NCBI RefSeq assembly: GCF_003334315.1
Contig: NZ_QOWR01000001.1
Source of the DNA: Escherichia coli
GTDB lineage: Bacteria > Pseudomonadota > Gammaproteobacteria > Enterobacterales > Enterobacteriaceae
Length of the DNA: 64,000 nt
Strand: one strand, 5' to 3'
The first letter of the stretch is position 1. Each line of letters begins with the position of its first letter. Below are positions 46,727-47,905 of this stretch, one piece after another. Position numbers and translations under genes: made by a program. Under the pieces are notes generated by a model, which searched no databases, had not been told where the DNA came from, and saw only the letters and a program-made list of their open reading frames with translations.

Positions 46727-47905
46727 ATGAGTAATATTGTTTACCTGACAGTAACGGGAGAACAACAAGGAAGCATCTCCGCAGGTTGTGGGACTTCTGA
46801 GTCTACAGGTAATCGTTGGCAGAGCGGGCATGAGGATGAAATATTTACATTCTCACTCTTAAATAATATTAATAATACGGGGCTTGGTTCACAGTTCCAT
46901 GGTATAACATTTTGTAAATTAATTGATAAAAGCACTCCATTATTTATTAATTCCATTAACAATAATGAACAATTATTTATGGGATTTGACTTCTATCGAA
47001 TAAATAGATTTGGTAGATTGGAAAAGTATTATTATATACAACTAAGAGGCGCTTTTTTATCGGCTATTCATCACCAGATCATTGAAAACCAACTGGATAC
47101 AGAAACAATAACTATTAGTTATGAATTTATCCTCTGTCAACATCTTATCGCAAATACCGAGTTCAGCTATTTGGCACTCCCTGAAAATTATAACCGTTTG
47201 TTTTTACCAAATTCAAAAAACCAAACAAATAATCGTTTCAAAACGTTAAACAGCAAAGCTATTGGCAGGCTACTTGCTGCTGGTGGCGTATACAATGGGA
47301 ACATTGAAGGATTCAGAGATACTGCGGAAAAACTGGGTGGAGATGCAATAAAAGGCTATGATCAAATACTAAATGAAAAAACAGCGGGCATAGCGATAGC
47401 AACAGCATCTATTCTTTTAACAAAGCGTTATAATGTTGATACATATACAGAAATAAATAGTTACTTAGGCAAACTTAGAGGTCAACAAAAACTTCTTGAT
47501 GGTATAGACATAATAGAAATAATATACATTAAGAGACCTTCAAAAGACTTAGCTAACTTACGAAAGGAGTTTAATAAAACTGTAAGAAAAAATTTTCTTA
47601 TCAAACTTGCAAAAACCTCCGAAGCATCTGGAAGATTCAACGCCGAAGACCTTTTAAGAATGAGAAAGGGCAATGTTCCTCTAAATTATAATGTTCACCA
47701 TAAACTATCTCTAGATGATGGTGGTACTAATGATTTCGAAAATTTAGTATTAATCGAAAACGAACCATATCATAAAGTTTTTACTAACATGCAATCACGA
47801 ATAGCTAAGGGAATATTAGTAGGTGAAAGCAAAATCACTCCTTGGGCCATTCCATCTGGCTCAATTTATCCTCCCATGAAAAATATTATGGACCACACAA
47901 AATGA
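46727..47905 (+). CDS. yhhZ: Hcp-like protein with C-terminal HNH-type nuclease motif (putative polymorphic toxin)
   Basis: 392-aa ORF; N-terminal ~160 aa Hcp-like; C-terminus NYNVHHKLSLDDGGTNDFENLVLIENEPYH matches the HNH/Endo VII pattern HH..GG..N..N..H. Confidence 0.85.
   Translation: MSNIVYLTVTGEQQGSISAGCGTSESTGNRWQSGHEDEIFTFSLLNNINNTGLGSQFHGITFCKLIDKSTPLFINSINNNEQLFMGFDFYRINRFGRLEKYYYIQLRGAFLSAIHHQIIENQLDTETITISYEFILCQHLIANTEFSYLALPENYNRLFLPNSKNQTNNRFKTLNSKAIGRLLAAGGVYNGNIEGFRDTAEKLGGDAIKGYDQILNEKTAGIAIATASILLTKRYNVDTYTEINSYLGKLRGQQKLLDGIDIIEIIYIKRPSKDLANLRKEFNKTVRKNFLIKLAKTSEASGRFNAEDLLRMRKGNVPLNYNVHHKLSLDDGGTNDFENLVLIENEPYHKVFTNMQSRIAKGILVGESKITPWAIPSGSIYPPMKNIMDHTK

Follow-up and report, generated by a model that had tools for sequence, protein, structure and literature searches.

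Proteins that carry a toxin as a C-terminal extension of an Hcp domain, the Hcp-ET proteins, were reportedly defined by Ma et al. in 2017, as later reviews have it. One of them, Hcp-ET1, combines Hcp with an HNH domain and is described to inhibit bacteria by its DNase activity, to be delivered by T6SS2, a type VI secretion system (T6SS), and to be neutralised by the downstream encoded ETI1 (PMC6730261, PMC6099711, PMC9990079); it degrades the DNA of the target cell (PMC6730261, PMC6099711). In strains C227-11 and 55989, Hcp-ET1 is an orphan Hcp with an HNH domain which is followed by the immunity gene ETI1, and mixed hexamers were guessed as its loading mode (preprint, bioRxiv 10.1101/2024.03.05.583533). 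The term 'evolved Hcp' was applied to YhhZ, in which Hcp forms the N-terminal and HNH the C-terminal domain, in a study that also described orphan evolved Hcps (Blondel et al. 2009, PMC2907695); YhhZ is also the type member of group 32 of the His-Me fingers and was concluded to be a nuclease (Jablonska et al. 2017, PMC5714182). Here, we compare with these proteins an open reading frame (ORF) from a stretch of 64,000 nucleotides of Escherichia coli (contig NZ_QOWR01000001.1), called the window in the following. The ORF is located at positions 46727-47905 on the plus strand, starts with ATG and encodes 392 amino acids; gene neighbourhood and matches to annotated E. coli chromosomes identify it as yhhZ.

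In all likelihood, the product of yhhZ is a specialised ('evolved') Hcp and an effector of the polymorphic-toxin kind; it is Hcp-ET1 itself or an allele 99.5% identical to it. The protein encoded at the yhhZ locus of strain 55989 was identical to YhhZ of the window in 390 of 392 positions and its YrhA, the product of the following gene, in 163 of 164. Since, in addition, genomes contain essentially one copy of the gene, YhhZ can almost certainly be equated with Hcp-ET1, an identification based on secondary sources and on strain, architecture and copy number. Like YhhZ, Hcp-ET1 has an Hcp N-terminus and an HNH C-terminus (PF01844) and is encoded at an orphan site with an immunity gene directly downstream, and beyond the two substitutions there is probably no difference between them. 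In E. coli K-12, the gene for YhhZ (NP_417899) is the same and has the same position, with yhhY and ggt on either side, but IS1E interrupts the yrhA that follows it (PMC12428005); yrhA of the window is intact. The initial annotation of this sequence had already pointed to the known class of Hcp proteins with C-terminal extension toxins, and profile, predicted structure and genomic context agree with it.

The Hcp-HNH architecture of YhhZ, the assignment as nuclease and, very probably, the antibacterial function are thus already known, and RefSeq already names YhhZ an Hcp1-family T6SS effector. The discovery value is therefore small. The present analysis itself covered architecture, fold, conserved catalytic residues, toxin exchange, toxin-immunity linkage and distribution. 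It adds a structural model of the toxin module with high confidence, correct boundaries (a toxin of ~150 residues and a breakpoint at residues 220-240), the connection of YrhA to the SUKH immunity superfamily and the finding that conservation among Hcp-ET proteins is highest in the supposed linker. The parts of yhhZ are as follows:

46727-47905, plus strand: coding sequence of yhhZ (ORF) for a single protein in which the conserved helical segment lies between Hcp domain and HNH toxin
46727-47167, plus strand: Hcp (TssD) tube-protein domain, residues 1-147 (TIGR03344, PF05638, PDB 3HE1)
47174-47422, plus strand: conserved helical pre-toxin segment, residues about 150-232 (identity profile, ends of BLAST alignments, predicted helices)
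47444-47881, plus strand: nuclease toxin module of the HNH (His-Me finger) type, residues about 240-385
47681-47806, plus strand: beta-beta-alpha-metal core containing H324 and H325 (where strand 1 ends), N335, N339 (strand 2) and H349 (helix) (model and invariance)

Constant N-terminal part and exchangeable toxins

The first ~160 residues had been called Hcp-like, which was borne out by the profiles. Residues 1-147 matched the NCBIfam model TIGR03344 (Hcp1/TssD) over model positions 1-161 of 167 with an expect value (E) of 3.8e-34 and 118 bits, the curated cut-off being 58.9 bits, and the N-terminus also matched Pfam T6SS_HCP (PF05638; E 2.5e-11). Solved Hcp structures were found with E-values between 2e-11 and 3e-9, i.e. 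3HE1 (Hcp3, E 2.3e-11), 6A2V and 5MXN. A full-length AlphaFold model, calculated on an alignment of 13 close homologues only, had a mean predicted local distance difference test score (pLDDT) of 52. When this low-confidence model was searched with Foldseek the best matches were Hcp chains, but with template modelling (TM) scores of 0.1-0.27. Because the N-terminal model is of low confidence, membership in the Hcp family rests on the sequence profiles; judged by these, the N-terminus of YhhZ is a bona fide member of the Hcp/TssD family.

The region behind the Hcp domain had been taken for a long linker, which has to be revised: residues ~150-232 form a conserved, domain-like segment and the best conserved part of the Hcp-ET family. 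Homologues of YhhZ fell into two sets. Proteins of the first set, from Citrobacter and metagenomes, are full-length homologues with 51-73% identity over at least 97% of the length. Proteins of the second set (345-428 residues) have only the first 49-68% of YhhZ in common with it, with 61-76% identity, and end in different C-termini, some of which bear the Pfam toxin domains PF15644, PF11429 or PF21814. Altogether, ~230 N-terminal residues were common to proteins with differing C-termini at 62-92% identity, and the middle segment was found in Hcp fusions with at least ten other toxin types. The mean identity in blocks of 20 residues to 12 Hcp-ETs with non-HNH toxins was 0.47-0.89 up to residue 220, dropped to 0.31 at residues 221-240 and did not exceed 0.17 after residue 241; the highest value, 0.89, was found for residues 181-200 (47267-47326). 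The ends of BLAST alignments cluster at residues 220-235. The recombination breakpoint is thus sharp and lies at residues 220-240. Helices were predicted, with low confidence in the full-length AlphaFold model, at residues 176-232, and the helical segment ends exactly at the toxin-swapping breakpoint with TAGIAIATASILLT (residues 219-232, 47381-47422), a hydrophobic sequence rich in Gly, Ala and Ser which is also the most hydrophobic stretch of YhhZ.

YhhZ is therefore built from Hcp (residues 1-147), a conserved helical segment (about 150-232) and an exchangeable toxin of ~150 residues, and this constant Hcp plus helical segment with an exchangeable toxin is the signature of a polymorphic toxin. 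Indeed, what defines polymorphic toxins in the sense of Zhang et al. 2012 was found here: a constant N-terminus with alternative toxins, the same toxin on other carriers and an immunity gene downstream. We tentatively suggest that residues ~150-232 may be a functional, previously uncharacterised module of all Hcp-ET effectors and not a passive linker, although we consider this somewhat doubtful. If it is one, the segment could determine how the 27-kDa extension fits on or in the T6SS tube or, alternatively, aid the passage of the nuclease across the inner membrane of the target cell. The secondary literature on Hcp-ET gives no role for the segment (the primary Hcp-ET paper lies outside this scope). 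A transmembrane helix in the middle segment was also considered but was not supported by a Kyte-Doolittle value of 1.18 over 19 residues, with 13-14 hydrophobic residues.

The C-terminal HNH nuclease module

With YhhZ as the only query, the evidence for an HNH domain was marginal: Pfam HNH matched residues 322-343 with an E-value of 0.013, and a search of the PDB gave 0.09. Therefore, a family profile was built. The segment 235-392 was taken from 11 full-length homologues, chosen as the most diverse ones, and used to search 1.84 billion representative proteins, which yielded 891 relatives with E-values of at most 1e-3, 228 of them with at most 1e-30. The domain is located within 10 residues of the C-terminus in 147 of 149 relatives checked, in proteins of 136 to 1261 residues, and the same C-terminal domain was found in PAAR, Tox-PAAR-like, LXG and Rhs proteins.

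An alignment of 42 family members, each 33-58% identical to YhhZ, revealed 13 residues that are invariant in all 42: R279, F282, G315, P318, V323, H324, H325, D330, G333, N335, N339, H349 and Q356; in YhhZ, the core residues are located in LNYNVHHKLSLDDGGTNDFENLVLIENEPYHKVF (residues 319-352). All 42 members matched Pfam HNH with E-values of at most 0.1 and 19 with at most 1e-3. The profile of the 42 sequences recognised the HNH domain of Cas8f-HNH (E 1.3e-5), with VHHKLPLDDGGTN..NL....H aligned with VHHIVPLSQGGAD..NM....H; the motif VHHIVPLSQGG...KN...H of Cas8f-HNH was aligned to the core residues of YhhZ. The DNase of pyocin AP41 was matched with an E-value of 6e-3. The HNH of YhhZ is, contrary to the description from 2009, not degenerate, Ser328 being its one peculiarity.

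The AlphaFold model of residues 232-392, calculated on the 42-sequence alignment, had a mean pLDDT of 93.2 and a predicted TM score (pTM) of 0.86. It consists of a three-stranded sheet (245-268), a long helix (272-295), two short helices, the beta-beta-alpha unit with strands 321-325 and 340-344 and helix 345-360, and a final strand (368-376). The module combines the beta-beta-alpha-metal fold with the pattern of catalytic His, structural Asn and metal-binding His that characterises the HNH/His-Me finger proteins (Pfam clan CL0263). The fold of the C-terminus had been set beforehand as the check on the assignment, and it falls in a nuclease fold and not elsewhere: the model matched His-Me/HNH nucleases only, namely Cas8-HNH, the Rhs2-CT toxin and the DNases of pyocins S2/AP41 and colicins E7/E9. 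Of the original proposal of an HNH signature in the last ~60 residues, the motif and the fold have thus stood, with invariant residues and a high-confidence model behind them, but the extent has not; the motif lies 40-73 residues from the end and the module comprises ~150 residues.

The best Foldseek matches were the DNases of colicins E7/E9 and pyocins S2/AP41, with a probability of ~1.0 and a root mean square deviation of 2.5-2.9 Å over ~80 residues at 17-28% identity. Like YhhZ, they have the HNH beta-beta-alpha-metal core after helices and are interbacterial toxins with a dedicated immunity protein. YhhZ has in addition an N-terminal three-stranded sheet and a C-terminal strand; the immunity proteins of colicins and pyocins are of the Im-type with four helices and their delivery is by receptor-mediated import, whereas for YhhZ a SUKH-like immunity protein and delivery by a T6SS are predicted. 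The resemblance is structural only: membership in the Pfam families of these DNases was rejected, since YhhZ gave no significant match (E 1.9 for PF21431 and 0.39 for PF12639) and the best family member reached 5e-3 to 2e-2. With Cas8-HNH of the type I-F CRISPR Cascade (8W1P, 8YDB) and the Rhs2-CT HNH toxin of Serratia (9T38), YhhZ has the nuclease core of ~80 residues alone in common; their carrier proteins and biology differ from those of YhhZ.

Immunity gene and proposed mode of action

The gene downstream of yhhZ is linked to it directly, the ATG of yrhA overlapping the TGA of yhhZ (ATGA at 47902-47905):

47902-48396, plus strand: yrhA, probable cognate immunity gene encoding 164 amino acids, divergent SUKH/SMI1_KNR4-like (NF038335, synteny, homology)

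YrhA matched the NCBIfam model NF038335 ('YrhA family') with an E-value of 1.5e-36, and no match was found in Pfam. In Citrobacter koseri, an Hcp-HNH orthologue is encoded between yhhY and ggt and is followed by a protein of 164 residues that is 68% identical to YrhA. Three unrelated carriers of the toxin were examined, a PAAR protein, an LXG protein of a Firmicute and a Tox-PAAR-like protein adjoining DUF2169, and in all three the toxin is followed by a SUKH/SMI1_KNR4 protein of ~150 residues. YrhA aligned over ~100 residues to the SUKH proteins of the PAAR, LXG and Tox-PAAR-like carriers with E-values of 2e-9, 6e-9 and 3e-6, respectively; the link of YrhA to SUKH came solely from these neighbours of other toxin carriers. 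Because of this homology, YrhA is placed, as a divergent member, among the SUKH-type immunity proteins and is regarded as the toxin's natural partner; going by sequence, it is probably the cognate immunity protein of YhhZ.

yhhZ lies inside a 2.4-kb islet whose GC content is 0.30-0.36, compared to 0.51-0.57 in the flanks. The islet, searched as a 3.3-kb sequence, was present with a coverage of at least 80% in 3758 of 5426 complete E. coli genomes, i.e. about 70% carry yhhZ-yrhA-yrhD-yrhB. In the remaining genomes, the yhhY-ggt site is empty or has other content, which in an O157:H7 strain is, for example, a DUF4225 protein. The 506 bp that encode the toxin were found in 3790 of the 5426 genomes, always on the chromosome, at 3813 places with a median of one per genome, and at least 1000 contigs have a record of exactly this YhhZ protein. 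With a single copy in ~70% of the genomes, the orphan position is the normal state of yhhZ. The absence of T6SS machinery from the locus, noted as unusual in the initial annotation, is thus correct for the stretches matched to annotated chromosomes but not unusual, as seen from these 3790 genomes, the site in C. koseri and the description from 2009.

From these data and the literature a mode of action can be proposed. Through its Hcp domain, YhhZ would become part of a T6SS tube or be carried by it, the T6SS genes being located at another site of the genome, and the conserved helical segment would join Hcp to the exchangeable toxin. The toxin would act as an HNH/His-Me finger DNase in which H325 is likely the general base, H324 and H349 could be metal ligands and N335/N339 may have a structural function, and, once injected, would degrade a neighbouring bacterium's DNA. 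The SUKH-like product of the translationally coupled yrhA would inhibit the nuclease inside producing cells and their kin, and yrhB may be an additional immunity gene of the orphan type. That the toxin acts as a DNase, that YrhA/ETI1 neutralises it and that its delivery depends on T6SS2 is taken here from the literature on Hcp-ET1.

Several observations weigh against this proposal. No annotated T6SS gene was present in the stretches of the window that were matched to annotated chromosomes (779-56446). Residues 1-190 of the full-length model had a pLDDT of ~30, so that the N-terminus was not confidently modelled, albeit with strands placed as in Hcp. Ser328 of YhhZ (47708-47710), in HHKLSLDD, stands where more than 90% of the 42 family members have Pro, and the orthologues outside E. 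coli read HHKLPLDD. E. coli K-12, which has no T6SS (PMC6730261), keeps an intact yhhZ next to its IS1-disrupted yrhA, from which it follows that the toxin can be silent or harmless in some backgrounds. Finally, an extension of ~27 kDa per subunit is, by our reasoning, too large and cannot fit into the lumen of the Hcp ring.

Some of these observations would also suit a silent relic, in which a horizontally acquired yhhZ is silenced in an H-NS-type manner and no longer delivered by a T6SS, while the immunity genes are selected for protection against neighbours; yhhZ would then persist only by being harmless when unexpressed. The very low GC content of the islet, the lack of T6SS genes in the matched parts of the window and the situation in K-12 fit this scenario, and Blondel et al. 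saw YhhZ as unlinked to T6SS function with a 'degenerate' HNH (PMC2907695). We nevertheless consider it unlikely, since all catalytic residues are intact, the ORF has its full length and the toxin-coding DNA has, with a single exception across the 3790 genomes, an identity of 95% or more. Furthermore, yrhA of the window is intact and translationally coupled, and a near-identical protein of Shiga toxin-producing E. coli is reported to kill in a T6SS2-dependent manner (PMC6730261; bioRxiv 10.1101/2024.03.05.583533). A DNase effector is likewise preferred to a C-terminal domain that acts as a colicin-type RNase/tRNase, attacks another substrate or needs a host cofactor, as is the case for some His-Me finger and colicin-like toxins. 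The best structural and profile matches (Cas8-HNH, pyocins S2/AP41, colicins E7/E9) cut DNA, and Hcp-ET1 breaks down the DNA of target cells according to the reviews cited above (PMC6730261, PMC6099711), which makes a target other than DNA very improbable. That yhhZ has a role independent of a T6SS, e.g. as an intracellular defence or stress nuclease borrowing an Hcp-like fold, is hardly credible: its orphan location and its induction in biofilms, seen in older work as reviewed in PMC2907695, would agree with such a role, but the neighbouring genes had no match to anti-phage defence models (PADLOC), the N-terminus is a genuine TssD whose profile score exceeds the curated cut-off, and toxin swapping with immunity pairing is typical of secreted interbacterial toxins.

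The islet and its surroundings

The effector gene and its partner are accompanied by two further small ORFs. The order of genes is gntR, yhhW and yhhX on the minus strand, yhhY, yhhZ, the ORF of 164 codons and two small ORFs on the plus strand, and ggt on the minus strand. The features of this region are:

46500-48900, no strand assigned: low-GC islet inserted between yhhY and ggt, with yhhZ inside (composition profile)
48491-48646 (or 48482-48646), plus strand: yrhD, small putative gene of 51-54 codons in the islet (ORF, RefSeq annotation)
48846-49130, plus strand: yrhB, Imm35-family immunity gene, orphan (Pfam PF15567, E 4.6e-23)

yrhB is called an orphan immunity gene because the islet contains no matching toxin gene; orphans of this kind are frequent at polymorphic-toxin loci. 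None of YrhA, YrhB and YrhD had a match in PADLOC, and yrhD had none in NCBIfam either. A scan of the islet for promoters and terminators gave background only (14 promoter-like sites compared to 12.7 expected) and was not used as evidence. In a study of the island 'Gist34', yhhZ-yrhAB was assigned to 'conversion of methionine to cysteine' (PMC3309015); this appears to be a misannotation caused by a name collision with yrhA/yrhB of Bacillus subtilis.

The window was 99.2% identical to the chromosome of E. coli 55989 over positions 31446-56446. It was 99.98% identical and collinear to the chromosome of E. coli S30 over positions 779-49715, except for an IS1-sized insertion in S30. Two differences indicate that its strain is closely related to S30 but distinct from it. 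The insertion, an IS1 between yhgF and feoA in S30, is absent from the window at about 4819-4827. Furthermore, yhhW of S30 has an internal stop, and the yhhW ORF of the window is intact (43814-44509).
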